Below are positions 1-29,786 of a DNA stretch of 64,000 nucleotides, piece by piece. This stretch comes from a virus. The translations under genes and the position numbers were made by a program. The notes under the pieces were generated by a model. The model made no database searches. It was not told where the DNA came from and was given only the letters and a program-made list of their open reading frames with translations. How positions within the stretch are numbered: the stretch's first letter is position 1; the number at the start of each line of letters is the position of its first letter. The stretch spans positions 1 to 64,000 of the IMG/VR virus record IMGVR_UViG_3300020601_000007; one strand, 5' to 3'.

Positions 1-622
1 CAAGGAGTGAAGCGGGTGCGTCAGCGAGCGAAAGGAGTTTCTCATCATTGAGTTCAATCGAACCATCCTCGTCCAAAAGTGACTCTGGGAAGATGAAAAT
101 GATGCTAAGGGCGACTGCTTCGCCGTCCTTATTCCTTCCAAGGAGACAGGGATAAAGACCATCGCCTAAACCGGCATCTGTCCAGACCCCATCCTCATTG
201 GCATTCCACCAGTAGTTGTCTGGGTCTTTCTCATATCGGTCGTATTCCCACTCTCGTGCAGCCTGTCCGTCTTCGTTGTTGTATTTCACAGCATTCCAAA
301 TGCTCATCCGTCCACTGTCGACGCCAAGGCTTGAGTTGTATTCCCATTCGCTGACTTTTTCGTAGCGCCTCATTCCTTCAGCCCTCGGGCTTTTCCGGAT
401 GATACGCAGTCTTGCGACTCGCTCGCCGAAATTGTAGGTTTTTTCCTCACCTTCTTTGGTGGTGTATTGGCCTGTTATCTCGCCTCGAGCAACCCGGACT
501 TCGTATTCTCCGGGCTTCATCGCTATTTCAAATTCGCCGACTTCTGTGCCCACGCTGTAACACGGGTCAGTTGCGGCCACGCTCTCACCGAGCGTGATGT
601 TGCAGAGTTTTTGCTCTTGCAC
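1..622 (-). CDS. DUF4241-like protein, partial (runs off the left edge)
   Basis: Not in the ORF track because there is no stop in the window. Manual translation from motif GTG at 622 is open to base 1 and contains LGVDSG...GLGDGLYPCLLGRNKDGEAVALSIIF. Confidence 0.6.
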   Translation of the reverse strand, partial: MQEQKLCNITLGESVAATDPCYSVGTEVGEFEIAMKPGEYEVRVARGEITGQYTTKEGEEKTYNFGERVARLRIIRKSPRAEGMRRYEKVSEWEYNSSLGVDSGRMSIWNAVKYNNEDGQAAREWEYDRYEKDPDNYWWNANEDGVWTDAGLGDGLYPCLLGRNKDGEAVALSIIFIFPESLLDEDGSIELNDEKLLSLADAPASLL

Positions 623-629
623 GATTGGC

Positions 630-1067
630 TCATTCGTTTTTGAGCCGTTGACATTTTCGACAGTGCCCCCAGTCACACCATTTGGACGGGTGGGCTTCTT
701 CGATGAAATCCATGACCAAGTCAGCGTAGTGCTCGTCGTGCATGGTTTCCATGATGTGTTCAGAAAATTGGAGTCGTTCCTCCAGAACGTCGATTTTGTC
801 GTAGGTTCTCTTCAACTCAGCAATCAGGTCAGGAACGGCGGCCATAGCAATCAAATTACAATGGTCTTCCACCGTCAGGAGTCCGTCATTGTTTATCACG
901 TTGTAATTCCAAGACGGGTATTGGGCGATGATAGAGTTGTTGCGTCCCGCCTCTTCAGCATGGATTTCGCCTCCATCATGTTCCCATTTTCCTTCTGACA
1001 TACCTTCAAACTGAGTCAAGTCGATTCGCTGCGGCTTGTCCGCAGTTGGTTCATCGTTTGATGACAC
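630..1067 (-). CDS. hypothetical protein
   Basis: ORF 630..1154; in-frame CAATC-GTG start at 1067, directly after the primase stop. Confidence 0.7.
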   Translation of the reverse strand: MSSNDEPTADKPQRIDLTQFEGMSEGKWEHDGGEIHAEEAGRNNSIIAQYPSWNYNVINNDGLLTVEDHCNLIAMAAVPDLIAELKRTYDKIDVLEERLQFSEHIMETMHDEHYADLVMDFIEEAHPSKWCDWGHCRKCQRLKNE

Positions 1068-1074
1068 GATTGCC

Positions 1075-2205
1075 TCACCACAAAGGTGGGCTTGGTTCAA
1101 AGTCGTCCAAGTCATCTGCGTTGATGACTTGACACAGGCGTCCTCTCTTGCCATGAATGGTTCCCGGTAGACGAATGATTCGTCTTGGGTCAGGGGTGAC
1201 GTCGTAGTCGATGAGGATTCCTTCTCTCTTCACACGCTTGACAAACCATGTTTTCCATGCCTTGTCGAGTCGTTGGAGTTTTGCCGAGGGTGTATGCTTG
1301 TTCCCTGCTCGGTAGAGTTTCTCAATGCTCTCTTTCGCCTCGCCGTGTAGATTCGGTTCGAGTCTCCAGCCGAAGTCAATGAGGTGGAATCCTTTACCGC
1401 CACTGAAAACAATGACGGGTTCTTGGTCCGATACGATGTCTTGTTCCTGATACCATTCCAACAGTTTCTTCGTTTCCGCTGCTGATTCCTCGAACGTCTC
1501 CATTTCGTAGTCGACGTCGAAATACAGTTCACGGAAGAAAAATGTGTTGTTCCTGACATGGGACATTCCTTTCTTCTTGAATTTCTTGGCACCGCCCTTG
1601 CTTAGCGGGTCGGGGCCGATGGATTGCGGGTTATACCATGCACCAGTTGAATAATACACATGGTGCGGGGCATATTGCATCAAGCGACGTTTGAGGTTTT
1701 TCTTGCCTCTTTCGTCGTTCTTGAATGTGTCCAGCAATTTCATGACGCGCATCCGTTGCTGCCGTTCGTCCCAGATGAAGAAGCGTAATTGCCTCCACTG
1801 AGCGTAGGGCGGGAGCCACAAGTTGTTGTGGTCCACATTCTGGTAGTAGCGTCGTATGGCGCGTGTTCTGCGCCTCATTACCAATCGTTGTTGCTCTTTC
1901 CATTCTGGGGTCTGTCGTAGCGATACATCGAAGCATCGTCGAAGAGCCCTTGCCGTCAGCGTAGCCAGCGGTAGTGCAGGGCAGTCGCAATCGTTTGCTC
2001 CTTTCCTATCACATGCTGGGTGATGTTGCTTCGGGAAATATTTCCCGAAGAGGCTGATGACATTCAATGGATTGCGAATAAATGAACGGAGGTCATAGGC
2101 GTGGTGTTCACAGAACACCTCACCCGGCTTCGCTTCCAATTTGCAGCGAGTTCCGTCTTTCTTCGTAGCGTCACAACGAGTGTAGTTGTGTTCCCATTCG
2201 GTCAC
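1075..2205 (-). CDS. priS: archaeo-eukaryotic primase catalytic (small) subunit with N-terminal Cys/His finger
   Basis: AEP motifs RELYFDVD, FSGGKGFH, DYDVTPDPRRIIRLPGTIH; N-terminal CxATKKDGTRC...FCEHH; motif GTG start. Confidence 0.88.
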   Translation of the reverse strand: MTEWEHNYTRCDATKKDGTRCKLEAKPGEVFCEHHAYDLRSFIRNPLNVISLFGKYFPKQHHPACDRKGANDCDCPALPLATLTARALRRCFDVSLRQTPEWKEQQRLVMRRRTRAIRRYYQNVDHNNLWLPPYAQWRQLRFFIWDERQQRMRVMKLLDTFKNDERGKKNLKRRLMQYAPHHVYYSTGAWYNPQSIGPDPLSKGGAKKFKKKGMSHVRNNTFFFRELYFDVDYEMETFEESAAETKKLLEWYQEQDIVSDQEPVIVFSGGKGFHLIDFGWRLEPNLHGEAKESIEKLYRAGNKHTPSAKLQRLDKAWKTWFVKRVKREGILIDYDVTPDPRRIIRLPGTIHGKRGRLCQVINADDLDDFEPSPPLW

Positions 2206-2223
2206 GATTGCTCTTTTCGAGCG

Positions 2224-2959: not shown

Positions 2960-3375
2960 TCTCGTCTCTCCGGAGCGGGGGGGTTTGGATTCAATACAGC
3001 CCATTGGCTCTTGCATCCTTTGCACCAAAAGTTGAACGTTTTTTTCGCAACCGCGACTTGGGCGAGTTCGCCACAGCCGTCGCAGACATCATCACCAACA
3101 TCATAGTGTCGGATACCACGGAGAGAGGCCGCTTTGGCCAACTTGAGGAACCTTTCAGTGTATTCGGGGTTCATCATGGTCTCGACCGTTTTGTTTTTCA
3201 GTTCAAGGTCGGAGATGGTGTCTTTCGCGATTTGTTCAACCGCCTCGTTGTAAGAGGCTCCGCACGAGGAACACAAGACTTGCGTTTCAGAGTCACGCTG
3301 GTCGTGTGCCATTCTGTGCATTTTGATTCGTGTGTCTAAGCAGAAGACACATGCTGGTGTATCATTGGATAACAC
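2956..3375 (-). CDS. double zinc-ribbon protein
   Basis: Motif GTG at 3375; four CxxC pairs. Confidence 0.65.
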   Translation of the reverse strand: MLSNDTPACVFCLDTRIKMHRMAHDQRDSETQVLCSSCGASYNEAVEQIAKDTISDLELKNKTVETMMNPEYTERFLKLAKAASLRGIRHYDVGDDVCDGCGELAQVAVAKKTFNFWCKGCKSQWAVLNPNPPAPERRE

Positions 3376-3382
3376 GATTGCC

Positions 3383-3697
3383 TTACGAGGTGGCGTAATA
3401 TCGACTGTCTGGTGGACAGTCGCACTTTTGCTTTTCACCGTAAGGCGTTGTGGTGAGACACTCTTTTTCTCCCTCCCAATACCGACACACTACCCCGTAG
3501 TATTCGGGGTCATCTTCAGCGAGGTGCAGGCAATTGGGACATAGGTCTCGGTTGTGGTGAGGGTGCATGGTGATGTGCCAGCCTTCCTCATTTTCAGCGC
3601 AAGAAACACAGAAGGCACCACAGTTGGAGCAGTCGATGCTCTCATCTGGGCATTCCTCGTTGCATTTGTTGCACTTTGGTGTCCATTCATTGGTCAC
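3383..3697 (-). CDS. Cys-rich zinc-finger protein
   Basis: Motif GTG start; several CxxC. Confidence 0.65.
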   Translation of the reverse strand: MTNEWTPKCNKCNEECPDESIDCSNCGAFCVSCAENEEGWHITMHPHHNRDLCPNCLHLAEDDPEYYGVVCRYWEGEKECLTTTPYGEKQKCDCPPDSRYYATS

Positions 3698-3718
3698 GAT
3701 TGCCCGAAGGCATGGACC

Positions 3719-4543
3719 TCATTGGGTCCAGAAAGGATGGTCGTCTTCTTCGGTCTTGGCCCAAAAGCACCCTGATACGCCCCGTCCAAACGGGAGCATA
3801 GAGAATGATGCTTTTTCATCGGTAGACCAGCGCATGGCGGCTATCATCCGCCAACCTGAAGCAATCAGAATGAACGGTAGTTGTGCTTCAAGGCTCGGGT
3901 CAAGAGCCTCGCTGCAACCTTCGTTCTCAAAAACACTGACGATGTGTTTCCACATCTCTTGTGTTGTTCTGGCAAAGTGTCTTCGTAGCACCCAGCGCTC
4001 CCGTAGGATTTCGGGGCGTGTTTGCACTGGGTTGTGCTCGAGGATAAATTCCTCACACAGAACCACAAGTTGCTGTATCAGAGCGTCTTCTTTGACACGC
4101 TGGTCCCACACTGTGCTTGCACGGAAATGGTTGTGAAGGTCCTGAGGATTCAATTTCCAAAGTTCCTTCTTTCCGTCATACAGTTTGGCACTTTTGACTT
4201 CATCCAGTGGAGCAGATTGTTCTGGCTCCGTGGTGGTTGTTGGCATGAACGTTCTCATTTCGAGACCACGTTCGTTGGCTATCGTTGTGAGCAAGTGCTC
4301 CTTGAATTTCGTAGCCACCTCAGTGATTGTTTTCCGAGAGTCGTCTTCGTCGCTGCCTCCATCGCCTTGCAGGAACTTGTTCAGTCCCTGCTCAGCCTCG
4401 AGCAGCATGCCAAAATAAATTTCGACGGCTTGACGTGTCTTCTGCATGATGGTGACGAACTGTCCGACAGGTATCGGGGTTTCAAGTTCGATTCCATCAC
4501 AAGAAACAACGTTGCCGTCGTTATCCATGTGGATTCCTTCCAC
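3719..4543 (-). CDS. hypothetical protein
   Basis: 274 aa; motif GTG start. Confidence 0.75.
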   Translation of the reverse strand: MEGIHMDNDGNVVSCDGIELETPIPVGQFVTIMQKTRQAVEIYFGMLLEAEQGLNKFLQGDGGSDEDDSRKTITEVATKFKEHLLTTIANERGLEMRTFMPTTTTEPEQSAPLDEVKSAKLYDGKKELWKLNPQDLHNHFRASTVWDQRVKEDALIQQLVVLCEEFILEHNPVQTRPEILRERWVLRRHFARTTQEMWKHIVSVFENEGCSEALDPSLEAQLPFILIASGWRMIAAMRWSTDEKASFSMLPFGRGVSGCFWAKTEEDDHPFWTQ

Positions 4544-4552
4544 GATTGGAGG

Positions 4553-4932: not shown

Positions 4933-5270
4933 TCCTCCTCACTCCTCTTTTGCATTTCGCTTGCTGGGATTTCTCCATCAGCGGTGAGGACAATGTCCTC
5001 TTCTTCACATGTCTCGTGGTAAATGGTCTTCTTCAGCGACTTCAAGGGGTAGTCGTTACCGTTCCATTCGCCGTGATATGAAAACACGGCGTGAACAGCC
5101 ACTTCCTTGAAGTGGATGCTCTGGGACTGTGCCACCGCGATGGCAATTTCCTTTTTGTCGTATCTGAACCGTTCCACGTGGGCATGGTCGTTTGTGCATT
5201 CGACCTCGAAGTAGGCGTCAAATTCTCCTGACTGCGCTACCGCGAGGATGGTGTGTGTGCTTGCGCTCAC
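4929..5270 (-). CDS. hypothetical protein
   Basis: Motif GTG at 5270 (alternative ATG at 5291). Confidence 0.65.
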   Translation of the reverse strand: MSASTHTILAVAQSGEFDAYFEVECTNDHAHVERFRYDKKEIAIAVAQSQSIHFKEVAVHAVFSYHGEWNGNDYPLKSLKKTIYHETCEEEDIVLTADGEIPASEMQKRSEEE

Positions 5271-5287
5271 GATTGAGACGAAGGGAA

Positions 5288-5875
5288 TCATTCCTCTTCG
5301 GTCTCGGGGACGGGGTCGTCCACATTTTCGGTGTGAATCAAGTTCTTGAAAATCAGGCTGTATGCTCGGGAAGCAACCGGACCTTGCAGCAGGTTAATCC
5401 AATCCCTTTTGTTCCACTCAGCGTATTCACTGTCGGTCGTGGCAACGAAAGGAACCATCGTTTGATTCCCTGTTTCGACGCAATCATAGGTGTATTCTCC
5501 TGTGTTCACGTCAGCCACAAAAAACATGTGGGGCATAGCGCCCTCAAATCTGAGGCGCCCTTCAAATGTGCAATTGTAAAACACGATGTAATCATCGCTA
5601 TCGCAAGTGAAGGTCACGTTTCGGAATACGCATCGTGTGAAAGCATTTGAAGTTCCATCGTCCAGTCGACCTCGAAAATTCAGTTGTTCGTAGGTCTCAT
5701 TTCGGTAGGAGTTACCAATCATTGGGCGTATTGGCCTCGTTCCCCGGCTTTCCCGGTAGCGGGCCAACGTCTGTTTCAATTCATTGATTTCTTCCTGCAA
5801 CTCCTCCATTTTCGAGGCTTTGCTTGTGATTTCGGGCGGCTTGAGCCGCCATAAGAGAGTTTTGTCTTCTCTCAC
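5288..5875 (-). CDS. hypothetical protein with a short beta-helix-like (FxxxxF) segment
   Basis: Motif GTG at 5875; FTRCVFRNVTF...FYNCTFEG. Confidence 0.6.
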   Translation of the reverse strand: MREDKTLLWRLKPPEITSKASKMEELQEEINELKQTLARYRESRGTRPIRPMIGNSYRNETYEQLNFRGRLDDGTSNAFTRCVFRNVTFTCDSDDYIVFYNCTFEGRLRFEGAMPHMFFVADVNTGEYTYDCVETGNQTMVPFVATTDSEYAEWNKRDWINLLQGPVASRAYSLIFKNLIHTENVDDPVPETEEE

Positions 5876-5883
5876 GATTGAGG

Positions 5884-6144
5884 CTAATCGCCTCGTGTGT
5901 AGTAAAAGTGCTGTATTCGGCAGGGGAGCACGACGGTCAAATTGCACTCGTCGCAGCATCTCCCCAGTGTCACCGGCGTTGGGTTGTGCCCCATGCCATG
6001 AAACCGGATACCGCAGATGGCACATTTGTGCCAGTGCTTTATGATGATTTCAATCGGAACGCCTGTTTCATTGGCTAACGCCATTTCTTGCTCTGTGACA
6101 AGGTGTTCAGGTTTCCCGGTTAAGCGCCTTTTCAGATTGCTCAC
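5884..6144 (-). CDS. small zinc-finger protein
   Basis: Motif GTG; CAIC...GHNPTPV...RCCDECN. Confidence 0.65.
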   Translation of the reverse strand: MSNLKRRLTGKPEHLVTEQEMALANETGVPIEIIIKHWHKCAICGIRFHGMGHNPTPVTLGRCCDECNLTVVLPCRIQHFYYTRGD

Positions 6145-6155
6145 GATTGCCTCCG

Positions 6156-6512
6156 TCAGTTTCTCACCTTGAGGGTGTTTTCAGGATAAGCGAGGTTCCC
6201 ACAGTTGGGGCAAAGGAAATCAGTGTCTGTGTTGTCTGTTTCCTCTTTGAGGACTGCTTTCTGTCCGTGCTGAGATTGTCTCCAGCCGCACCAGTGTTCA
6301 GTCCTGACTTGTCTGATGTGTTTGCATTCGTAACTCGGCTTTTTCACATGGTGTAAAATCCAGCCGGGGCACGAGCAGCGCCATTCCCGTGTCAGTTTGT
6401 TCGTCGACGGGCGGTAGATGTCTTGAATTGACACTTCGTATGACACATCATCTCTTGATTCAGACGAGACTTCAATTTTGAAGCGCTCGTTGGAGATACA
6501 TGCGTATTTCAC
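6156..6512 (-). CDS. SWIM zinc-finger protein
   Basis: CSCPGW...CKHI (CxC-x(n)-CxH) plus CPNCG; motif GTG. Confidence 0.75.
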   Translation of the reverse strand: MKYACISNERFKIEVSSESRDDVSYEVSIQDIYRPSTNKLTREWRCSCPGWILHHVKKPSYECKHIRQVRTEHWCGWRQSQHGQKAVLKEETDNTDTDFLCPNCGNLAYPENTLKVRN

Positions 6513-6521
6513 GATTGGGGC

Positions 6522-7832
6522 TCATTCGTCCCCGGTCTCATCATCAAGTTCGATGTTCATGAGTTGTCGCAGGCGGTTGGCCTGCTGTTGGCTCTTTGAG
6601 GTGACAGCAAGAAGGCGGGCATCGAAGGCGTTCTGAACCCCTGATTGGGGAGCAGTAGCCTCGGTAATGCCGCTGCCGACTACCTGTCGCATGTTTCCGA
6701 GTTTCCTCTTCAAATCACGCTGCTCACGGAACAAACGGTCGATTTCCTTTGGCAGGTCCTCGTCGTCTGAATCGCGCACAACGGTGAGTAGGTCTTCGTA
6801 GTATGCGTTCACCGAAGAGACAACTTCTCGAGCAACGTCCTGTCGCAGATATTCCATCTGGCGGGCGTCGTCAACATATCCAAGAAGACGGAAGGTCGTT
6901 GCCGACGAAGCCGTGACACGCACGAGTTCGCCGTCTTCTCCTTCTTCGTAGGAGTCTTCTATCAGGTTCACAGTTCCGAACCAGTTGATGAGTTCCGAAA
7001 AGGGCACGAGGTATTCCATGTAGCGTTGGTCTCGATTCCAGTCGGGGATGTAGTAGACACCGCCGGAAGAACCTCCGAAGCGCATGCCGCCGACGTCCTT
7101 TACAGCACGTCGCATGATGGCACGCAGAGCCTCTTGGTCCACGGTGGTGGCTTCCCGAATCAATCCTTGTCGTAGGGTGTTGGTCACTTCCCGAATTTGC
7201 TCGGGACTCACCTTCACTGATGCATCCCATGGCGTGACTTCGTAAAGTCCAGCCAGTTCGCTCAGTTCCGCACGGGTCGAATTTTCCAGTGTTCGTCCAT
7301 GCAGGGTTTGGTGCACATATCGTCGGGTCCACTTGTAAAGTTCGCTTCCTCGTTGTGGTGGGATGTAGCGGATTCGGAAGAGGTCTTCCGTCACGCTGTC
7401 CCACTGTCCGGTAGCGACGTTCTTTCCTCGCCATCGGCGAACAAGTTTCCATTCCTTGCTATGTCGCAACATGACGACTTCGTAGAAGACTCTGGCGACT
7501 CTGTTGCCGCTTTTGTCTTCCCAGTCATCTGTCTCGACAAGACCAGCGTCTCGGTTCAAGTCCTTCAATGCAAAAGAGAAGGCTTTGCTTCCGCTCCGTG
7601 GTCTGGGCACCCAAGAATCCCAATCAATCCCATGGTGGGACCAATCGTATGGTTCTGATGCCCCGTAGCCGGGTATTCCCAACTCTCGTCCTTTCGAGAC
7701 CAATTCCTCATAGGGAACTGTGCCAGCAAAAATGGCATAGAACCCGAGGTGGCCCCGACAAGGGACTTCGGTGTTGTTACTCACGAAGCCCTCTTCTTCA
7801 AGCGGGCTTCTTTGGTTTGCGTCATTTGACAC
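6522..7832 (-). CDS. DUF6744/DUF3150-like protein
   Basis: GGVYYIP motif and helical C-terminus; motif GTG at 7832; family recalled, not searched. Confidence 0.5.
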   Translation of the reverse strand: MSNDANQRSPLEEEGFVSNNTEVPCRGHLGFYAIFAGTVPYEELVSKGRELGIPGYGASEPYDWSHHGIDWDSWVPRPRSGSKAFSFALKDLNRDAGLVETDDWEDKSGNRVARVFYEVVMLRHSKEWKLVRRWRGKNVATGQWDSVTEDLFRIRYIPPQRGSELYKWTRRYVHQTLHGRTLENSTRAELSELAGLYEVTPWDASVKVSPEQIREVTNTLRQGLIREATTVDQEALRAIMRRAVKDVGGMRFGGSSGGVYYIPDWNRDQRYMEYLVPFSELINWFGTVNLIEDSYEEGEDGELVRVTASSATTFRLLGYVDDARQMEYLRQDVAREVVSSVNAYYEDLLTVVRDSDDEDLPKEIDRLFREQRDLKRKLGNMRQVVGSGITEATAPQSGVQNAFDARLLAVTSKSQQQANRLRQLMNIELDDETGDE

Positions 7833-7867
7833 GATTGGCTCGCACAGCGGGCCGTAGTTGTTGGCTT

Positions 7868-8113
7868 TCAAGCCATCTCGTCAGACCATTCGTCACGCAC
7901 AGCGTTGGCGCTGGCGGATGCAGCCATCATGGCTTCCATCATGGTCAGACGGGCAAAGATATGAGCACACACGAATGTTGGTCCGATGATGCTGCCTCGT
8001 CCGGGCAGCGCCACTTCTACGACAACATCGTCCAAAGCAACCCCGTCAATGTTGAGGGTCACTTGACTTCCGATGTCTTCTTTCGTGTATGTTTTGTCGT
8101 TTTGATTCGACAC
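7868..8113 (-). CDS. hypothetical protein
   Basis: Motif GTG start. Confidence 0.6.
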   Translation of the reverse strand: MSNQNDKTYTKEDIGSQVTLNIDGVALDDVVVEVALPGRGSIIGPTFVCAHIFARLTMMEAMMAASASANAVRDEWSDEMA

Positions 8114-8123
8114 GATTGGACGC

Positions 8124-9026: not shown

Positions 9027-9035
9027 GAATGAGGC

Positions 9036-9299: not shown

Positions 9300-9308
9300 G
9301 AATGTTCC

Positions 9309-21904: not shown

Positions 21905-21945
21905 CGCAAAAGAAAAACGGTCAGCAAATTTGCATCTGCTGACCA
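21905..21945 (-). terminator. hairpin plus TTTTTCTTTTGCG terminator-like element
   Basis: GGTCAGCAGAT...ATTTGCTGACC stem followed by a U-tract. Confidence 0.55.
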
Positions 21946-22197: not shown

Positions 22198-22473
22198 AAC
22201 GATTGGCTACCCTCCGGAGGAATAATCCTCCTTTGGGTGCCACATGCTGCGAGCCCCATAGTGGCAAGGGGGGCAATTCGTCACCGCCCGCAGCACTAAC
22301 TGAGCATGGTGTGCCACCACCATTGATTGCTCAGATAACGATTGGCTACCCGCCGGAGGAATAATCCTCCTTTGGGTGCCACATGCTGCGCTCTCCCCAT
22401 AGTGGCATGGGTCAATGTGCACGTCAGGACTTGACGGTGTCGCAGCACTAACTGAGCATGGTGCCCAGATAAC
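22198..22473 (-). ncRNA. two tandem copies of pseudoknotted structured repeat D
   Basis: UGCUGCG/CGCAGCA stem; CCC(C)/GGG(G) hairpin whose loop UGCCAC can pair with downstream GUGGCA; GGAGGA/UCCUCC hairpin; third copy at 31025. Confidence 0.65.
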
Positions 22474-22487
22474 GACTGAGGGTCGTC

Positions 22488-22530
22488 TCCCCTCCAGTGT
22501 ATATACGCTGGAAGGAGTGATAACACTCAA
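22488..22530 (-). promoter_or_regulatory. promoter-like repeat C, copy 1
   Basis: CCCCTCCA(G/T)TGTATATACGCTG plus GTGATA(A/G)CAC; 4 copies in the window. Confidence 0.6.
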
Positions 22531-22837
22531 GAAAACCTCTCCCTTTCAAGCCTCAATTCCGTCGAATTGTCGGTCTTGAGTGGTTGAGGTGCCTCTGAAC
22601 ATGTTGTTTCGTTGGGCCGTTGATACCATCTCAGGCTTGACCGAACGTATGTTCGTGGCTCAACCGTGGTGAGGCTCAGACTTGCCAGAGTCATCTCCAC
22701 GGAAGGAACAGTTAGCAATCCGGGCCCGTGCACTGTTCAAACAGCGGGCTTCGGTTATCATAGGGCTCTCAGCAGGGGAGACGGTTCACGCCTCCGGGCC
22801 GAGAGGAATATCCCCTCAAACGGGTGGAGAGGTTGTT

Positions 22838-22879
22838 CCCCTCCATTGTATATACGCTGCAAGAAGTGATAGCACTCAC
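22838..22879 (-). promoter_or_regulatory. promoter-like repeat C, copy 2
   Basis: Same TATA core and GTGATAGCAC site. Confidence 0.6.
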
Positions 22880-23010
22880 GCAGGAATACATGTAACGGTT
22901 GCCCCGTAGGGCGGAAAAGGCCGCTCAAGCAGCCTTGGCTGCGTGAGAAGCGTTGTTCAAGTCAGAGACCTGAGAGAGAAGACAGTGCAGTGTGTTGAGC
23001 ACTCAAATGC

Positions 23011-23427
23011 TCAGCCGTTCCCATATCGTGTTGGCCACGAAGCAGGGTCGCCTTGACTGTTCTTGATTGCGTCTCGCATCTCATCGCTGAGGTCGAGGAG
23101 CGTATCAGCACAGTTCGTGCAGCAGCGGTGCCCGTTGAACACACCGAGGGTGTGTGCGGGCTTGCGGCAAAAGTAGCACTTGTTGTCGTAGGTTCCTCCA
23201 TTGTAAATGGAGACCTCGATTCCGTCCTTGTAGCACCGCCACTTTGGTGTCCGTGGGGTTCTCGGGATGGTGTAGGTCTCGCATTCATGGCATCGTCCAC
23301 ATGTGCAGTCGGTTCGGATGAGTGAGAGTGCTCCCACCATCGTGCGAAGGCTCCTGTTGAACTCTTCGTTGTCTTCTTGTGGAGAGGAATCCCCCTCTCC
23401 CGGGGTTGCGTCATTGTTGGTTGACAC
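23011..23427 (-). CDS. zinc-finger protein with shared leader A
   Basis: MSTNNDATPGEGDSSP; CxC/CxxC motifs; motif GTG. Confidence 0.7.
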   Translation of the reverse strand: MSTNNDATPGEGDSSPQEDNEEFNRSLRTMVGALSLIRTDCTCGRCHECETYTIPRTPRTPKWRCYKDGIEVSIYNGGTYDNKCYFCRKPAHTLGVFNGHRCCTNCADTLLDLSDEMRDAIKNSQGDPASWPTRYGNG

Positions 23428-23439
23428 GAATGAGACCAG

Positions 23440-23958
23440 TCATTGACTGGGCTCGGTTTTGAAAATGAATCCTTGGTCTCGTCCTCGGGTTGGTCTGGCT
23501 GGAGGTTTTGCACTCCAGTAGTCCTCCAGCCTACTGGAGTGAGGTTTTGCACTCCAGTAGTCCTCCGAGATTTTCATTTCGAGTTCTTGGCGGCGTTGTT
23601 TCACCTTGTAAAGGAAGTTTCTGTGAAACCCCTTTTTCAAGTCTTCAATAGCCTCTTCTCTGCGTTTCTCCGCCCACTCGAACGGAGTTGCACGGTGGCC
23701 ATACTTCTCGATTTTTTCGATAAAAATCGGGTTGTGGCAACTGAGCCCGTTGAAGAGGTTAGCGATGGCCGCTTTTGTGTAGCCCACGGGGGGCTTTGGG
23801 AGGCATGCCACGGCAGCCATGCTTGCTGTAAAAACATCAAGCATGTTCGCAGGGGACTTCCACCGGTATTCATTTTCGTGTTGATTGACAGAAGGCTGTT
23901 CAGCCTTTGCCGTGCGTGGGGAAGTCCCCACGTTGAGTCGATTGATAAAGGTCGACAC
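23440..23958 (-). CDS. hypothetical protein with EDYWSAKP duplication
   Basis: Motif GTG at 23958 (alternative ATG at 23988). Confidence 0.65.
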   Translation of the reverse strand: MSTFINRLNVGTSPRTAKAEQPSVNQHENEYRWKSPANMLDVFTASMAAVACLPKPPVGYTKAAIANLFNGLSCHNPIFIEKIEKYGHRATPFEWAEKRREEAIEDLKKGFHRNFLYKVKQRRQELEMKISEDYWSAKPHSSRLEDYWSAKPPARPTRGRDQGFIFKTEPSQ

Positions 23959-23987
23959 GATTGACGAATTGAGGTCATTCTCAGCCA

Positions 23988-24236
23988 TCAGGCTTCGACG
24001 TATTCCTCGTAGATGTATTCGTCCGTCTCAATCCGTAGTTTGAGTTGGGACGCAGATGCAATCTGAAATTTCGGAACAATTCGTCCGCTTTCAGTGCATT
24101 CAGTGCACGGTTCAAAGAGGTTCTTATCGGATGTCTCCCAGCAAGTGGGGCATTTCCAAAGTGGAAACCTCATGTCATGTGCGTCGATTTGGCCCTTGCA
24201 TCCGCAGGGGCATTGGTGTCTCCCATCATGTGACAC
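23988..24236 (-). CDS. small Cys-rich protein
   Basis: Motif GTG; CPCGC, CPTC, CTEC. Confidence 0.65.
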   Translation of the reverse strand: MSHDGRHQCPCGCKGQIDAHDMRFPLWKCPTCWETSDKNLFEPCTECTESGRIVPKFQIASASQLKLRIETDEYIYEEYVEA

Positions 24237-24249
24237 GAATGGAGAACCG

Positions 24250-24843
24250 TCATTGACAGTCCTCCGGGTTGTGTAAAAGTTCAGCGCAATCGAAGTTTGC
24301 TTCGATATACCAAGTCAGTTCCGTTGGCTTGATGCCGGGGCGATGACCGAAGGCGATTGATACCTCCTTTTCTCCCCAAAGTCCGAACCAACGGACATTC
24401 AGTTGTCCGAGCGGCCAAATCGTCCATCTCTGGTTTGGTCCCCAATATTCCGACGTATGGAATCTTCTGCCCCACTCTCGACAGGCGTCAAGGGTATAGG
24501 GCGATTCCTCAATGCGGGTTTGGTTATCCATGCAGCGACAGCGCTTTATTTCGCCATCGTAGCCGACAGTTTGGGGGTGGTTGACCTTCCCCCGGTAGCA
24601 TCCGGCTCTGTGATAAATAGACGTTTCTTTGTCCTTGTAAAAGTTCATAGAAAGAATTTCTTGGTCGCAGTCAGGGCAGTGGAGGGACAAGCCACCGAGG
24701 TTCTCTCGGATATGCGTTGCTCCACAGCAAAGGAATTCTGGCGTGCAAGGCCAATATCCGTCGCTATCGCATCCTTTCATGTGCGCCAACTTTTTGATTT
24801 TCAAAGGCTCTTGAGCCTCTGTGATTGCGTCATTGGATGACAC
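24250..24843 (-). CDS. Cys-rich hypothetical protein
   Basis: Motif GTG at 24843. Confidence 0.65.
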   Translation of the reverse strand: MSSNDAITEAQEPLKIKKLAHMKGCDSDGYWPCTPEFLCCGATHIRENLGGLSLHCPDCDQEILSMNFYKDKETSIYHRAGCYRGKVNHPQTVGYDGEIKRCRCMDNQTRIEESPYTLDACREWGRRFHTSEYWGPNQRWTIWPLGQLNVRWFGLWGEKEVSIAFGHRPGIKPTELTWYIEANFDCAELLHNPEDCQ

Positions 24844-24856
24844 GAATGAAGGAGGG

Positions 24857-25168
24857 TCATTGACCGTCCTTCTCACGCTCCTCGCTTTGGAGCATGCCTT
24901 CATAGAGGCGAACAGCCTCCAGAAAGGGTTTGAGCAGAGCATCACGCTGTTCCTCATTGAGGTAGCGTGGTTTGCTCCAATAAGGCAAAGGTCCCATAAC
25001 GAACTTGAATGGGTTGTGCAAAAATTGCTCATAAGTCAAGTTGATGTGCTGAAGCACACTCGATGGAACTTTTCTGCCTTTGGTGATTACCCCCTCGAAC
25101 TCACGAGAACTCGGAACTCGGGGGAAGTCGGGAATCTCCCGACCTTGGGGGGTGCGACTTTGAGTCAC
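24857..25168 (-). CDS. hypothetical protein
   Basis: Motif GTG start. Confidence 0.65.
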   Translation of the reverse strand: MTQSRTPQGREIPDFPRVPSSREFEGVITKGRKVPSSVLQHINLTYEQFLHNPFKFVMGPLPYWSKPRYLNEEQRDALLKPFLEAVRLYEGMLQSEEREKDGQ

Positions 25169-25566
25169 GAATGGTCAGTGGTTTTGGCCACTGCCTTTTG
25201 GCGTTTTACCGCCATTTTTGTCCGACAGTCGAGGCAATACAGTTCGCCTTGTCCCGTGCGGTTTTCACACCGCCACGGACCGAAAACGGTCTTGTTGTTG
25301 CCGAAGTGCACTTTCCACCCCTCGTGCGAGGAATAGAAGTGTATTGGTCCTCCATTGTGGTTGAAACAAAGTGAATCAACGCGCCAAATGTCCTTCTGTT
25401 GAAAGGTTTGGGTAGAGGATTTGTCGGGGGTCCAGAAGCCGATTCCTTGAACCATCGGGGTGCGGTTGATGTATTTCACACTCCTGAGGTATCCGAGGCG
25501 CTCGGCTCGTTCGATTGCTCCCCTCAAAAATGGAAGAGGGGTTAGACGAAATGACAATTTTGTCAC
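25165..25566 (-). CDS. hypothetical protein with C-terminal zinc ribbon
   Basis: Variant CATCC-GTG at 25566, downstream of a repeat B copy. Confidence 0.6.
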   Translation of the reverse strand: MTKLSFRLTPLPFLRGAIERAERLGYLRSVKYINRTPMVQGIGFWTPDKSSTQTFQQKDIWRVDSLCFNHNGGPIHFYSSHEGWKVHFGNNKTVFGPWRCENRTGQGELYCLDCRTKMAVKRQKAVAKTTDHS

Positions 25567-25654
25567 GGATGGCCGCTCAAGCAGCCTTGGCTGCAAGAGA
25601 AGCGTTGTAACACGTCAGAGACGTGGATGCACAAAGCAACTGAACCACTGATGG

Positions 25655-26191
25655 TCAGTCCCAGTCGTCACAGCCGCGGGGGCAATACTTGAGGACGTAG
25701 CCCCTCCAGAGGACGTTTGCTCCGGTCAGAAGGTTGTAGTGGTAGCGGGGGTAGTCCGTCTGAGCAATCAAGTGCTCAATGGGTTCCCATCGCTTCACAA
25801 CGTTCGGTTTCCACTGTGTCGAGTCGTCAGTCCCGAAGGTTCTGACAGCGAAGTCAGCCAGCAGTTGCGTGAAAAGCCGCACATCTGCGCGGCAGTCGTA
25901 GCAGAAATCCTTTTCCTTTCGGAAACGTTCTGCCCACTCTTCTTTCGATGCGAAGAGTTCGCTGACAATGGACTTCACCTTTTCCTCGTCGATGACACGC
26001 ATGCCGTCTTCGGTGGAAAATGCTTCCATCTGAATCCGCATTCCCGCTCCGCCCACGTTGAGGGACATGAGGTGGATTGCTTCAGGGTCGAGCAGTGCTT
26101 CTTGGAACACGATGTCGAAGACATCGAGTCTGTTGCTTGTGTTTGGAGAGGAATCCCCCTCTCCCGGGGGTGCTTCGTTTTTGGTTTGCAC
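25655..26191 (-). CDS. hypothetical protein with shared leader A
   Basis: CACCC-GTG start; VQTKNEAPPGEGDSSP. Confidence 0.7.
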   Translation of the reverse strand: MQTKNEAPPGEGDSSPNTSNRLDVFDIVFQEALLDPEAIHLMSLNVGGAGMRIQMEAFSTEDGMRVIDEEKVKSIVSELFASKEEWAERFRKEKDFCYDCRADVRLFTQLLADFAVRTFGTDDSTQWKPNVVKRWEPIEHLIAQTDYPRYHYNLLTGANVLWRGYVLKYCPRGCDDWD

Positions 26192-26290
26192 GGGTGCCCC
26201 GTAGGGCGAAAGGTCGCTCAAGCAGCCTTGGCCGCAAGAGAAACGTTGTTACAGCACAGAGTGCTGGATGTTGGGCGAAACAACGGAGTC

Positions 26291-27067
26291 TCAGAACTTG
26301 TGGATGACTTCCCACAAGTCGTTCTCACTGAGGTGCGTTCGCACCTGCTTTCGATACGCCGCTTGGGATGGTCGACCGGGCTTCCCCTTGGTAGGGGGTT
26401 CGGTGATACCCAAGTGCGCACGAAGTCGCATGAGGTTGTCGTGGGTCATCACATCGAACAGTTGCTCGAAGTAGATGCCGTCAGTTGGTTCTGCCTTGTT
26501 GAAGTTGCCATCGTCGACAGTAGCGTTCTTCAGGAAGTCCGCTTGGGTGTCTTCGACAATGCGCTCCAGAAGGTAGGCCTGAACCGCTGCGAAATTCTGC
26601 TTCAAGAACTTCGTCGGTTGCTTGTTCCACTTCTGCTCGAACATTCCCTTGTTGGCCGTGGTTTTGACGACCCAGTGGCCATCATCAGCCGCAGGTCCCA
26701 AAATCAAATGTCCGAAAATGGAGTCTCTGAGGAACACAGCAGGCCCATCCTTGTGCATGTGGACAAACCACCAGTTGTCAAAGGAGACACTGAGTGGTCG
26801 GCCACAGCCAAGCATCCCGTGAACATTCGCGTGCTGCTTGAGAGCACGCTGTGCTTGACGTTCTTGGTTGTTCGCTTGCTGGATGGCATGCTTCGTCAGG
26901 TAGGCAAAGTTTCCCTTGCGTGCCATCGCTTCGATGCAAAGGCACATCACCCTGACAAATTCTGTCAGTTGCGTTGTTGTCCAGTGTCCGATAGCATCAG
27001 ACACCTTCGCCGGTGTGTTTGGAGAGGAATCCCCCTCTCCCGGGGGTGCTTCGTTGTTGGTTTGCAC
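26291..27067 (-). CDS. hypothetical protein with shared leader A
   Basis: CATCC-GTG at 27067; the ORF-track extension to 27682 overlaps the neighbouring gene. Confidence 0.7.
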   Translation of the reverse strand: MQTNNEAPPGEGDSSPNTPAKVSDAIGHWTTTQLTEFVRVMCLCIEAMARKGNFAYLTKHAIQQANNQERQAQRALKQHANVHGMLGCGRPLSVSFDNWWFVHMHKDGPAVFLRDSIFGHLILGPAADDGHWVVKTTANKGMFEQKWNKQPTKFLKQNFAAVQAYLLERIVEDTQADFLKNATVDDGNFNKAEPTDGIYFEQLFDVMTHDNLMRLRAHLGITEPPTKGKPGRPSQAAYRKQVRTHLSENDLWEVIHKF

Positions 27068-27167
27068 GGATGCCCCGTAGGGCGAAAGGTCGCTCAAGCA
27101 GTCTTGACTGCAAGAGAAACGTTGTTCAGCACAGAGTGCTGGAATGAAGACTCGTTGGTTGCAGGGT

Positions 27168-27629
27168 TCAGATGTTCCCACAGGAGCAGCGGTTGCCACA
27201 CGACACCCTTCGGTAGTCGTGCTTCTCCTTGCATCCTTTACACATGGGCATGACGGGGGTTCCCCTCCCATTGAATTTCTGCCAAAGGATTGCGCGGTCA
27301 GGGCAACGGACGGTCTTCGCGTCGCAGCCACCGCCAATGCGATAGCCCTTGCATGCGTGGACGCCCAGTTTTTCGAGCGTTTCTTCCGGAACGTTGCCAC
27401 TTGGCACAGTGAGGGAATATCGAGGATTCCCACCGGCTGCCAAAATAGCCCAGTATCGGTCGTGCTCTTCCTGTGGAGAGTCGAGATTTCGGATGTATTT
27501 TTTGATGATATACATCGGATAACCCTGCTCAACGAAGTGGTTTTTCCATTGTTGGTCCGACCACCATTCTCGGTCTTCTTCTGGAGAGGAATCCCCCTCT
27601 CCCGGGGTTGCGTCGTTGTTGGTTGACAC
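27168..27629 (-). CDS. Cys-rich protein with shared leader A
   Basis: Motif GTG; MSTNNDATPGEGDSSP. Confidence 0.7.
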   Translation of the reverse strand: MSTNNDATPGEGDSSPEEDREWWSDQQWKNHFVEQGYPMYIIKKYIRNLDSPQEEHDRYWAILAAGGNPRYSLTVPSGNVPEETLEKLGVHACKGYRIGGGCDAKTVRCPDRAILWQKFNGRGTPVMPMCKGCKEKHDYRRVSCGNRCSCGNI

Positions 27630-27734
27630 GATTGACGGGTGCCCCGTAGGGCGAAAGGTCGCTCAAGCAGCCTTGGCCGCAAGAGAAACGTTGTTCAGCA
27701 CAGAGTGCTGGATGTTGGTCGAAACAAACGAACT

Positions 27735-28382
27735 TCACGCAAAGAGAGCCTCAAGACCATCATGGTCAGGGCGCTCCGATTTGCATTCTGCACAGCAGCC
27801 TTGGTAAGGCAACCACTGGTTCGGCCATCCCGCTTGTAGGGTGATTGGCTTGACCAGTTGCGCTTCGTAGTAGCATTCGGTGCAGATGTATTCGTTTTCA
27901 GTCAGATTCGATTCGCCCTCGACGGGCTCCTTGGTGTCGTTCAGGTTGATGCGATACCAAGTCGGCGTTTCCTTACCCCTGCTCAGCAGTTGCGGTCTGC
28001 GCAAGTAGGTGAAGAACTCAGGGTGGTCAAAAATCAGATAAGCAGTGCTCATCTTCGGAATGAAGGTTGGCCAATTTTTATCAGTCGGGTGAATCCAGCC
28101 ATCTGGCACGTCAGAATCGAGCCGTCGACCATCGCGGTGACCGCCAGCAGCCAAAATCTCGTTGGTGCTGACATGTCCCCAGTATCGACAGTTGACTGAA
28201 TCATCATGATACACATCGTGTGGCCCAGCGTAGTCGTAGAAGACTCGGTCGCCGAAAAGCCTGAATGCTCGAATGTCCCAATCATGGATGTGAATGGTTT
28301 TTCGTTCTCGCGTTGTGTTCAATTGCTTGACAGTTGGAGAGGAATCCCCCTCTCCCGGGGGTGCTTCGTTGTTGGTTTGCAC
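27735..28382 (-). CDS. hypothetical protein with shared leader A and C-terminal CxxC pairs
   Basis: CATCC-GTG at 28382. Confidence 0.7.
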   Translation of the reverse strand: MQTNNEAPPGEGDSSPTVKQLNTTRERKTIHIHDWDIRAFRLFGDRVFYDYAGPHDVYHDDSVNCRYWGHVSTNEILAAGGHRDGRRLDSDVPDGWIHPTDKNWPTFIPKMSTAYLIFDHPEFFTYLRRPQLLSRGKETPTWYRINLNDTKEPVEGESNLTENEYICTECYYEAQLVKPITLQAGWPNQWLPYQGCCAECKSERPDHDGLEALFA

Positions 28383-28481
28383 GGATGCCCCGTAGGGCGA
28401 AAGGCCTCGCAAGCAGCCTTGGCTGGTTGAGAAGCGTTGACAGCACAGAGTGCTGGGATGAAGACTCGATGCTTGCGGAAC

Positions 28482-28724
28482 TCATTCGTCGGTCAGTTCG
28501 AGCAGTTCGCCAATGAGTTCAGGGACAGAGTTTTCTTCTTCGAGCGAAGCGAATTGCTTCTTGATGAAATCCCTGAGAATTACGATGAGACGGTTCTTCA
28601 TGGCGAGGCGGGCCTCAAGTTCGGCCACCTTTTTCATCGCCAGTTGCACGGCATACGAAATTCGAGCATCCTCTTGGGCTTGCTTGAGTTCTTCGGGTGT
28701 GCGTGGTCCCCATCCTCCCATCAT
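28482..28724 (-). CDS. small coiled-coil protein
   Basis: GGAGG RBS; ATG overlaps the stop of the 31-aa peptide. Confidence 0.6.
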   Translation of the reverse strand: MMGGWGPRTPEELKQAQEDARISYAVQLAMKKVAELEARLAMKNRLIVILRDFIKKQFASLEEENSVPELIGELLELTDE

Positions 28725-28816
28725 TCATCCCTCCGTGAGGGCTGGTCGCATGTCTTGCAGTCTTCTTGTGGAGAGGAATCCCCCTCTCCCGGGGTTGCGT
28801 CGTTGTTGGTTGACAC
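28721..28816 (-). CDS. 31-aa peptide MSTNNDATPGEGDSSPQEDCKTCDQPSRRDE (leader A plus CxxC core)
   Basis: Manual translation from motif GTG at 28816. Confidence 0.5.
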   Translation of the reverse strand: MSTNNDATPGEGDSSPQEDCKTCDQPSRRDE

Positions 28817-28823
28817 GAATGAC

Positions 28824-29663
28824 TCACTGGACGAGAGCGCAGTGCCCCATAGGAGCACGGCGTTCAAACCACTCGTCGAGGAAAGCCTTGAACTTCTCAA
28901 CGGTGCTCACGTCTCGGTCGTGCTTGTCAAAAACACAGCCGGACAGTTGCCCGTTGGGGTCAATGCTCAGTTCCTCATAGCCAGCGTAGCACTGGCTGAG
29001 CCCCAGCATGTGATGTGTGCAGGGCTCGGTGAGTTGGTTTTGGGTTTTTGTCCCAGTGATGTCGAGGTGGTCCAGTTCAAACGCTTCTTGAAAGAGTTCC
29101 TCAAAGCGCTCCATGGAGCCGTAGTTTTGCGCAAGCGGCTTCATCATCAGGTGAGAAATGCTGCTTGAACGCCTGTCGAGTCGCTTGATGAAGGAAGGGT
29201 CCTTCACCCAGTCAAAGACTTCGACAGAATATGTCAGATTGACATTGAAGTGTCCCTTCCAGCCGTTGTCGTCGAGGTAGGCGGCTGCCTTCTCAACGAA
29301 CGTTGTTGCTTGTTCTGGGTTCGCAAACCGCTCCGTATCAACAGACATCGAGATGATGTCGAAGTTGCGGAGCAGCGTTGGGCTCATGCTCAAAATCACT
29401 TGGTGGGTCGTCGTCATGTTGACAACCATACCGAGTTCCTTTGCCACCTCAGCAAGACCAAGGTGTTCGGCCATCCTCGATTGAGGGTTGACCAAGAGCG
29501 CCAGTTCGTTGAATCCAGCGGTCGATGCCGTCTCAAGGATGTCCTCGAAATACGACATGGGCAATTCGGCTTGAAGGAGTTCTTCAAGGCCGGGAATATC
29601 AGTCAGATAGCATCCAGTGCAACTGAGTCTGCAATCCCGGGTGGGGTGTAAGAAAAGTCTCAC
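28824..29663 (-). CDS. radical SAM enzyme with twitch/SPASM-like C-terminus
   Basis: CRLSCTGC (CxxxCxxC); CYAG...SIDPNGQLSGC. Confidence 0.85.
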   Translation of the reverse strand: MRLFLHPTRDCRLSCTGCYLTDIPGLEELLQAELPMSYFEDILETASTAGFNELALLVNPQSRMAEHLGLAEVAKELGMVVNMTTTHQVILSMSPTLLRNFDIISMSVDTERFANPEQATTFVEKAAAYLDDNGWKGHFNVNLTYSVEVFDWVKDPSFIKRLDRRSSSISHLMMKPLAQNYGSMERFEELFQEAFELDHLDITGTKTQNQLTEPCTHHMLGLSQCYAGYEELSIDPNGQLSGCVFDKHDRDVSTVEKFKAFLDEWFERRAPMGHCALVQ

Positions 29664-29786
29664 GATTGACGAATGCCGTCCCGCCGAGCGGGGAGGAGGG
29701 CGCAGGTGGGCGTCACCTCCTGCCCCAAAGGGCGGCGGGTTGGGTTGGCATTGGGCTCACAGCATCTGGTCAATTCATTCAGCGAA

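Follow-up and report, generated by a model that had tools for sequence, protein, structure and literature searches.

The window analysed here comprises the first 64 kb (64,000 nucleotides) of the 110,123 bp IMG/VR virus record IMGVR_UViG_3300020601_000007, the completeness of which is estimated at 79%. From position 600 to 29680, its minus strand carries an array of about 50 small genes, all in one orientation and accompanied by junction signals. This array continues past the left end of the record. The signal, CAWTCGTG (W being A or T), supplies the GTG start codon of the following gene and stands between two small hairpins. An AEP primase-like protein and an AAA+ ATPase are encoded inside the array. 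The window also encodes a fused Rpb1/Rpo1-type polymerase subunit (33377–38212, plus strand), a family-B DNA polymerase, a group II chaperonin, a PD-(D/E)XK nuclease and a serine recombinase (43150–44061), the latter being located 13 kb from the array and the sole recombinase seen. The genes outside the array have ATG starts with GGAGG/GGTGA-type Shine-Dalgarno (SD) sequences in front, and the record carries hairpin plus T-run terminators as well as GTATATAC boxes.

Between positions 620 and 29668, the minus strand contained 37 exact copies of CAWTCGTG, one more than a previous sequence-only reading of this DNA had counted. Shuffling predicted 7.0 copies for both strands of the whole 64 kb, or about 1.6 for one strand of 29 kb; that reading had put the expectation at about 1. 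The enrichment and its concentration on the minus strand of the array were borne out by a count on both strands of the whole record, as the remaining 80 kb held one minus-strand and five plus-strand copies. No other word of comparable enrichment was found in the genome. Seven further array genes used near-variants, mostly one-letter changes. The six named previously were all present: CACTC at 11435 (CACTCGTG, 11433–11440, 62-aa open reading frame (ORF), behind a terminator), a linker with one extra G at 13026 (13024–13032, 168 aa), CATCC at 25566, 27067 and 28382 (CATCCGTG, 25564–25571, 27065–27072 and 28380–28387, with ORFs of 133, 258 and 215 aa, respectively) and CACCC at 26191 (CACCCGTG, 26189–26196, 178 aa). 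The seventh, CAACC, was located at 14843 (CAACCGTG, 14841–14848, 281 aa).

Junctions are named here by the position of the G of GTG, and all junctions, terminators and repeats described are on the minus strand. Thirty-one of the 37 exact sites opened an ORF of at least 80 codons. From right to left, these are found at 29661–29668 (CAATCGTG, 279 aa, with an overlapping CATTCGT at 29668–29675 before it), 27627–27634 (153 aa), 25166–25173 (103 aa), 24841–24848 (197 aa), 24234–24241 (82 aa), 23956–23963 (172 aa), 23425–23432 (138 aa), 19686–19693 (154 aa, 13 nt behind a terminator T-run), 17501–17508 (the 567-aa AAA+ ATPase), 15708–15715 (230 aa, behind a terminator), 13986–13993 (81 aa), 13733–13740 (232 aa), 12508–12515 (184 aa), 11906–11913 (128 aa), 11233–11240 (364 aa), 10127–10134 (132 aa), 9297–9304 (87 aa), 9024–9031 (300 aa), 8111–8118 (81 aa), 7830–7837 (436 aa), 6510–6517 (118 aa), 6142–6149 (86 aa), 5873–5880 (195 aa), 5268–5275 (113 aa), 4541–4548 (274 aa), 3695–3702 (104 aa), 3373–3380 (139 aa), 2743–2750 (173 aa), 2203–2210 (376 aa, primase-like), 1065–1072 (145 aa) and 620–627 (an ORF of at least 207 aa leaving the record). 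One more site (21380–21387) opened a 46-aa ORF overlapping the next gene (19866–21245) by ATGA. The five others were abortive or lay inside ORFs: 28816 (28814–28821, CATTCGTG, a 31-codon ORF in a repeat copy), 21622 (21620–21627, only 14 codons, in a non-coding stretch), 15553 (15551–15558, within an ORF, 36 codons, probably no gene start), 13299 (13297–13304, within an ORF, 39 codons) and 7972 (7970–7977, within the ORF starting at 8113, probably a chance occurrence). The 33 in-frame starts announced previously thus became 31 long ORFs and one of 46 codons. In the segment 23011–28821, five to seven repeats of about 60–110 nt, each with a junction and the first 16 codons or so, precede otherwise different ORFs; the copy at 28816 is the one opening just 31 codons.

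Relatives of the array were fetched as 20 loci from marine, estuarine and salt-marsh metagenomes, their ATPase homologs being about 50% identical. A single-protein scan of viral contigs with the ATPase gave no match, a profile scan of viral contigs returned only distant ATPases, none with the motif, and a thermosome scan of genome contigs gave no match. In all relative loci of useful length, the motif occurred about once per kilobase, on the gene strand only, at 44–56% G+C. Among eight representative loci (155 kb), CAATCGTG was present 124 times in sense and 0 times in antisense, and CATTCGTG 33 times versus 3. Single substitutions of the motif were near background, except for the replacement of the last G by A or T (12/2 and 13/2). 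The C at −5 and the A at −4 were invariant, also in the variants and in the more distant genome described below, and the A at −4 was unpaired. Nothing besides the motif was conserved from −60 to +45 at the 37 window sites. When these were pooled with the relatives (181 non-identical sites), positions −60 to −6 showed no A/T-rich box, no SD sequence and no conserved position, in agreement with the statements made from the sequence at first that the flanks are not conserved and that most junctions lack SD and TATA elements. The box expected about 26 nt upstream, at the archaeal TATA distance, was missing at most window junctions and was seen only at the GTATATAC repeats and at 17 junctions of the distant genome. 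A guide RNA pairing with the motif was considered and dropped, the complementary word being in no excess in the record.

The pooled sites also established where the genes begin. An in-frame ORF of at least 40 codons followed at 162 of the 181 sites (90%), as compared to 19 and 13 sites for the other two frames, and 134 of these 162 had no in-frame ATG within 15 codons. The 81-aa gene at 8113–7868 (minus strand) has an ortholog of the same length, 88% identical, at L135:13792–14037 in the complete genome G004 (IMG/VR 3300020274_000001; 140,336 bp with direct terminal repeats), the Rpo1 of which is only 29–34% identical. This ortholog has ATG at the codon where the window has GTG, and lacks the internal motif copy at 7972. 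The DNA similarity begins right behind the start codon and ends at the stop codon. On the basis of the frame statistics and of this ortholog, the assignment of GTG as the start codon of the array genes can be regarded as settled. The stored ATPase protein (P0001, 555 aa; ORF at 15800–17503) is 12 residues shorter than the ORF read from the motif GTG, and automatic gene calling therefore appears to miss the GUG starts of the array.

Base-pair probabilities were computed on 90-nt segments around the sites. At the 37 window sites, positions −10 to −5 were paired upstream with a probability of 0.5–0.6 (0.3 at random positions), the linker from −4 to −1 was unpaired (0.8), and positions 0 to +5 were paired downstream (0.65–0.7, versus 0.28 at random positions), with a loop at about +6 to +9. 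The layout is that of a first hairpin closing at −5, an open 4-nt linker and a second hairpin starting at the G of GTG, with stems of 4–7 bp. The same profile was obtained for 144 independent sites of relatives, so that the hairpin, linker, hairpin arrangement described initially was confirmed. Both hairpins were also more stable than shuffled controls (mean z −1.7 per hairpin, versus −0.5 for displaced windows). Hairpin 1 usually encloses the upstream stop codon and gains in strength close to the end of an ORF (z −1.96 versus −0.8). At orthologous junctions, the sequences of hairpin 1 were unrelated, yet all folded and closed at −5 or −6, which amounts to full covariation, and hairpin 2 showed compensatory changes. 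As far as the signal is concerned, the initial idea thus held: two helices around a 4-nt linker form a specific element, conserved across the lineage with covariation; its mechanism is what we infer below.

Several signs initially taken to indicate folding in RNA were less telling. G-U pairs exceeded A-C pairs on the sense strand (52:34 in hairpin 1 and 67:48 in hairpin 2, versus 160:197 and 236:300 at random positions); this excess is modest and the fixed GUG biases hairpin 2, and the argument, although it points in the expected direction, was not retained as proof of RNA. UUCG and GNRA loops, also invoked, were not enriched among the junction hairpins. A comparison of sense and antisense folding energies of hairpin 1 was uninformative and was dropped. 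At the ATPase junction (17503), a conserved upstream element of about 35 nt stands where hairpin 1 would be. This non-coding element (GCGCTTCTGC ... TCCCACCCG, window 17509–17560, minus strand, and L031–L048) precedes the ATPase junction in most relatives; it includes a CACCCGT variant of the junction word, and its TCCCACCCGTAA part recurs at 21390, 21654 and 30303.

The signal was also present where no gene starts. Behind the ATPase stop codon, every relative shared one order of elements (15772 and 15710 in the window): a hairpin with CAATC-GT(T/A) or CAATC-GG, about 10 nt, a GC hairpin with T-run, a small covarying hairpin and the next CAWTC-GTG. In the window, the first of these is the orphan junction at 15770–15777 (hairpin plus CATTC-GTT, kept in relatives), between the ATPase stop and the terminator-like hairpin and T-run at 15731–15756. 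The same arrangement was found at 11490/11435, with a hairpin and CAATC-GTC (11488–11495) ahead of the terminator-like GC hairpin and T-run at 11448–11482. A further orphan at 15010, CAATC-GTA (15008–15015), lies directly behind a stop codon. At the end of a unit, the orphan is a hairpin with CAWTC-GT(not G) lying between the last gene and the terminator. Copies of CAATCGTT were found beside non-coding repeats at 21.8–22.4 kb and 30.4–31.0 kb: an overlapping CATTCGT/CAATCGTT pair at 21789–21803 in a non-coding stretch, 22198–22205, 22337–22344, 30562–30569 (non-coding, followed by a hairpin opening at the G) and 31025–31032. At 30440–30447, CAATCGTC precedes a hairpin in non-coding DNA upstream of the array. 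The G at +1 was retained at all orphan and non-coding sites, where no start codon is required, and the signal therefore marks unit boundaries generally, beyond translation starts.

This observation bears on readings in which the junction acts in translation alone. The octamer and its hairpins might form, on an uncut polycistronic RNA, an SD-independent site for internal entry or re-initiation which places the ribosome on the GUG. The start codon is indeed part of the motif and in frame at 90% of the sites, the upstream ORF ends 7–13 nt before the GTG at 111 of the 181 sites, no SD sequence is present, and hairpin 1 is stronger near an ORF end. Hairpin 1 and the motif are nevertheless kept, with covariation, at junctions behind a terminator where there is no upstream ORF, as well as where no ORF follows; the motif stands beside non-coding repeats, and at about 50 sites no ORF terminates within 30 nt. 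Hairpin 2 engages the start codon in pairing, and the motif is not known to be complementary to rRNA or to pair convincingly with the 3' end of 16S rRNA or with initiator tRNA. Different motifs in two lineages which share an 88% identical gene also argue against a common host ribosome as the reader. We consider such a translation signal unlikely. In its pure form, termination-reinitiation, one of the three options listed in the sequence-only reading, fails because junctions occur without an upstream or without a downstream ORF.

A regulatory role can be imagined in which the start region shared by the genes of the block is the target of a viral protein that, by binding or cutting it, shuts them all off together, initiation relying on something else. 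RegA and RegB of phage T4, which act on early mRNAs, would be the model. A single motif common to one gene class, overlapping the start codon and missing from the rest of the genome, would suit such an operator, which would leave unexplained both the translation of internal cistrons devoid of SD sequences and the orphan and non-coding junctions. We regard it as highly improbable.

Within the array, only four or five terminators were seen. Besides those at 11448–11482 and 15731–15756, a terminator-like hairpin with T-run lies at 19701–19735 and the T-run tail of another at 21905–21926; upstream of the array, one more is found at 30239–30273. With junctions 7–13 nt past the upstream stop codon and so few terminators, the array is probably transcribed polycistronically. 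The T-runs lie at a fixed distance from the next junction, their centre being at about −22 from its G in 24 of 33 cases across lineages (11448–11482, 15731–15756, 19701–19735 and 30239–30273, with those of relatives). The idea that they act as TATA boxes was set aside, if only tentatively, since initiation at the G would call for a spacing about 4 nt longer; they may also serve the next unit. Candidate boxes at a suitable distance were provided by a four-copy repeat, in which a palindrome GAGTG-N4-CACTC stands beside a GTATATAC box and a hairpin with a junction-like word follows 26–28 nt downstream. The copies are located at 22489–22535 (followed by a hairpin and CAGTC-GTT, the G being 26 nt past the box), 22838–22884 (followed by a hairpin and CACCC-GTT), 30979–31025 and 31234–31280. 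The repeat is also present in L034 and L038.

Comparison of the gene order with relatives showed a conserved backbone in which several families relocate with unchanged orientation. Gains and losses, which the sequence-only reading had proposed to look for, were found exactly at the motif, and the relatives keep the motif, the layout and the covarying hairpins. In L031, about 92% identical to the window, an extra 86-codon ORF is inserted at 13988 with the same 12-nt junction sequence on both sides, and blocks end within −6 to +2 of the motif G in the pairs L043/L048, L034/L033 and L042/L048. It could be asked whether the junction is mainly the target of a site-specific recombinase moving cassettes, as in integrons. 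One-cassette indels with the motif at both edges, the relocation of cassettes with their orientation kept, an ORF shared by two lineages between different junction types and the serine recombinase gene at 43150–44061 are all compatible with this. However, long imperfect palindromes resembling attC are absent, no tyrosine integrase lies beside the array, and the motif supplies an in-frame start codon, which identifies it as an expression signal. Recombination at short conserved regulatory repeats, the PeSLs of T4-type phages, gives the same pattern without a dedicated enzyme (PMC2839356, PMC4122927). The integron-like option proposed earlier therefore stands for the cassette exchange and not for attC or IntI; a dedicated recombination site is hardly probable at all, and recombination at the repeated junction, although real, is probably a by-product of the expression signal.

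G004 provided an independent view of the same layout. It showed no excess of CAWTCGTG, and CACAGATG was found 35 times on one strand and 2 times on the other. Seventeen copies, each preceding a small gene, form the end of a conserved 55-nt intergenic element (53.6–90.8 kb, L135–L137; GGTTC-ACAG-ATG). The element has an A/T-rich box with its centre about 25.5 nt upstream of the ATG, the spacing of an archaeal TATA box, and an inverted repeat GAACC/GGTTC closes at −5; the element looks like a per-gene leaderless promoter cassette. At about eight other copies (47–54 kb), variable 5-bp hairpins with 3–4-nt loops precede C-ACAG-ATG, 17–25 nt past the upstream stop codon. These reproduce the architecture of the window in other letters, and the mean pairing profile of the G004 sites agrees with that of the window and its relatives. 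The CA at −5/−4 is common to both words, and the non-ATG forms CACAGATA and CACAGATT were also strand-specific. By these comparisons, the layout is old and the word lineage-specific, and the same layout with a different word suggests that the recogniser is probably virus-specific. The 81-aa gene, at 88% identity as compared to about 30% for Rpo1, indicates a fairly recent exchange between the two lineages, each copy having the local junction. The lineages therefore probably meet in one host, which would argue for a recogniser encoded by the virus.

The host itself is probably an archaeon, judging from the archaeal/eukaryotic type of the chaperonin and from a distant Rpo1 homolog binned as 'Euryarchaeota archaeon', within a large family of such viral Rpo1 genes. 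Searches for the Rpb2 family gave no match in the window record nor in the complete G004 (loci L133–L139); as Rpo1 is present and no Rpb2-family gene was found, the viral Rpo1 may stand in for the host subunit within the host polymerase. Searches for TBP and TFB families in the window record gave no match, G004 not being searched for either. Rfam and tRNA scans of the window returned a single tRNA, and the junction matched no curated RNA model and had no tRNA-like fold. The tRNA is a tRNA-Arg(GCG) at 46256–46330 (minus strand). Outside the window, the record carries very long multi-domain ORFs at 73–110 kb, among them a 2957-codon ORF (G000 73303–82176, minus strand; locus L001:9306–18176) with HD, guanylate kinase, NUDIX, glutaredoxin, DUF7831 and DUF5824 domains, neighboured by several ORFs of 850–1140 codons without family match.

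We propose, with a probability of roughly 40% and including the hybrid version described below, that the junction is an RNA punctuation site at which a polycistronic RNA is cut into hairpin-capped, leaderless or nearly leaderless GUG mRNAs. In this model, the array would be a block of genes, probably early ones, transcribed as a few long units between hairpin and T-run terminators, and the signal would act in the sense RNA. The junction RNA would fold so that a single-stranded C-A-W-U-C linker separates hairpin 1 from hairpin 2, which begins with the G of GUG. The linker would then be cut by a factor specific for this sequence, most likely one that the virus encodes or directs, either past the C closing hairpin 1 (C|A) or directly before the G. 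Each freed cistron would be a short mRNA starting at the GUG or 4 nt ahead of it, protected by hairpins at its 5' and 3' ends and translated as a leaderless mRNA without an SD sequence. Where a junction follows a promoter-like box, transcription would start near the same nucleotide, so that primary and processed mRNAs share their 5' end. As a side effect, the repeated junction would be a place where recombination inserts, deletes and moves cassettes.

This processing model explains the polycistronic layout with its few terminators, the orphan junctions and the non-coding units, as well as the two helices abutting a 4-nt single strand and the presence of a conserved hairpin inside the coding sequence. 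Of the three initial options it fits best, as the motif is conserved where no gene follows, although the cleavage is itself deduced. The archaeal enzyme aCPSF1 cuts after the C of a single-stranded CA, and its 5'-3' exonuclease activity is slowed by structure (PMC3553952). The invariant exposed CA of the junction agrees with the preference of aCPSF1 and CPSF-73 for a single-stranded CA beside a structure (PMC3553952). The strict lineage-specific word implies that an additional specific factor would be required beside an enzyme of this type. Four metatranscriptome runs contained parts of the array, and several contigs bridged junctions 622, 1067, 5270, 12510 and 13735, which is a weak indication of RNA spanning the junctions. 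In run X2, the end of one contig coincided exactly with the G of the 2205 start. It was not counted, as the 20 kb concerned held about 58 contig ends and about 43 sites, which gives one such match a chance of about 0.1.

A number of points weigh against cutting. The RNA runs are assembled contigs which carry neither strand, nor ends, nor level, in which DNA carry-over is possible and coverage gaps are uninformative. Searches for beta-CASP and RNase III families in the window record gave no match, hence no nuclease candidate, and in a Pfam search of 30 proteins most array proteins had no family match. General RNases do not require anything as strict as an invariant 8-mer, which is as typical of a polymerase start signal as of a cleavage site. 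Three units begin 10–15 nt past a terminator T-run, which leaves no room for a separate promoter, and hairpin 1, which sits between the GTATATAC box and the motif, would barely be transcribed if this box is a promoter. In G004, the whole motif changes together with a divergent viral Rpo1, and the A/T box at the archaeal TATA distance at most of its junctions places the motif there at what is, on this evidence, the start of transcription. Lastly, a start codon sequestered in hairpin 2 should hamper leaderless initiation.

The main rival, not among the options of the sequence-only reading, is that transcription stops and starts at each junction, a serious possibility which we hold to be somewhat less likely than processing. 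The junction would be a TATA-less initiator for a polymerase modified by the viral Rpo1, each gene having its own leaderless transcript starting at the G of GTG or at the linker A, and hairpin 1 being the end signal of the previous gene, by analogy with the late TAAATG initiator of poxviruses or with the way mononegaviruses use gene-end/gene-start signals. A fused Rpo1 belonging to a large viral family is encoded by the virus, and the sharp, lineage-specific word, which G004 replaces together with the start codon, is explained on this basis, as are the obligatory GUG by a required initial G, the units beginning directly behind terminators, and the boxes at TATA distance (about 25.5 nt before the ATG at 17 G004 junctions, and 26–28 nt before the motif G for the GTATATAC boxes of the window and L034). 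The promoters of the phage N4 virion polymerase, hairpins located a few nucleotides upstream of the start site, provide a further parallel. On the other side, about 35 junctions have no upstream conservation except a variable hairpin, and the searches reported above yielded neither an Rpb2-family gene (record and G004) nor TBP or TFB (record). If junctions were promoters, an orphan that fires straight at a terminator would be pointless, and the array would have no need of ordinary terminators. The conservation of hairpin 2 in both lineages, within transcribed coding sequence, suggests that it acts in RNA, and the contigs bridging junctions count weakly against this reading as well. The data as a whole fit a hybrid, in which boxed junctions would start transcription at the motif and box-less ones would be cut there, both yielding the same mRNA 5' end.

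Archaeal viruses are thought to use the ordinary signals of their hosts, namely TATA boxes, SD sequences and plain leaderless starts. Here, one invariant signal joins the gene end, the spacer and an obligatory GUG start codon for a whole gene class in an abundant marine lineage. Tentatively, and with less than even odds, we suggest that a clade of uncultured marine viruses (100–140 kb, probably archaeal, with the largest polymerase subunit only) uses a virus-specific punctuation code for its accessory arrays, read by a virus-encoded cutter that would turn long transcripts into hairpin-capped leaderless mRNAs lacking both a promoter and a ribosome-binding site. The code word would differ by lineage (CAAUC-GUG here, CACAG-AUG in G004), and genes moving between lineages would adopt the local word. 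If the junctions are processed, this would be a compact viral counterpart of the punctuation of mitochondrial transcripts and a natural system making leaderless mRNAs on purpose; if they are start sites, they would represent a TATA-less initiator coupled to the largest polymerase subunit that the virus itself encodes. In either case, the signal gives a sequence rule for annotating such genomes, whose GUG starts were missed by gene callers, and a lineage marker which makes cassette exchange between viruses visible.

No description of the signal was found in the literature searched on the motif, on archaeal viruses with polymerase genes or on Poseidoniales viruses, and it can only be compared to systems sharing some of its traits. 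The poxvirus late initiator TAAATG is virus-specific and overlaps the start codon, with an upstream A/T-rich core, a complete viral polymerase and no flanking hairpins. Likewise, the present motif is short and virus-specific, overlaps the start codons of an entire class of genes and belongs to a virus that has a polymerase gene of its own; unlike TAAATG, most sites have no upstream core, hairpins flank the motif and the second-largest polymerase subunit was not found. In the tRNA punctuation of mitochondria and the leaderless mRNAs generated by MazF, a long RNA is cut in a guided manner into nearly leaderless units; these differ from the array by the domain of life and the enzymes involved, and no tRNA-like fold is present here. 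In mimivirus, the hairpin rule consists of long palindromes cut by a viral RNase III-like enzyme, followed by polyadenylation (PMC4402537). A sequence-variable hairpin acting as an RNA-level end signal at nearly every gene end is a common trait (PMC4402537), whereas here the stems, of 4–7 bp, sit directly against an invariant linker and the start codon of the following gene, with no RNase III match in the record. The cleavage of histone pre-mRNA and by aCPSF1/CPSF-73 also involves a short stem-loop followed by an exposed CA, with an enzyme family present in all archaea (PMC3553952), but the preference of these enzymes is loose (CA only), in contrast to the invariant 7–8-mer differing by lineage seen here, where cleavage is only proposed.

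Integron attC arrays resemble the array by their promoter-less co-oriented cassettes, by junctions conserved in structure and variable in sequence, and by indels exactly at the junctions. However, attC is an imperfect palindrome of about 57–141 nt with R and L core boxes, as opposed to two separate 4–7 bp hairpins around an 8-mer, no adjacent IntI with attI and Pc is present, and the junction carries the start codon. Closer still in arrangement are the PeSLs, short conserved stem-loop modules which separate almost all the small genes in a co-oriented, variable block, and at which genes are gained, lost and swapped between relatives (PMC2839356, PMC4122927); in the window, the corresponding hairpin 1 ends at −5. 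The PeSLs differ in carrying a sigma-70 early promoter upstream of a normal ribosome-binding site (PMC2839356, PMC4122927), whereas the junctions of the window conserve neither a promoter nor an SD sequence, their eight invariant nucleotides contain the start codon, and a second hairpin is formed within the coding part. The signal shares one or two traits with each of its closest counterparts and fails the defining features of all. It belongs among the repeated regulatory junctions of viral gene arrays, and may conceivably, if with odds short of even, represent a new mechanism among them.

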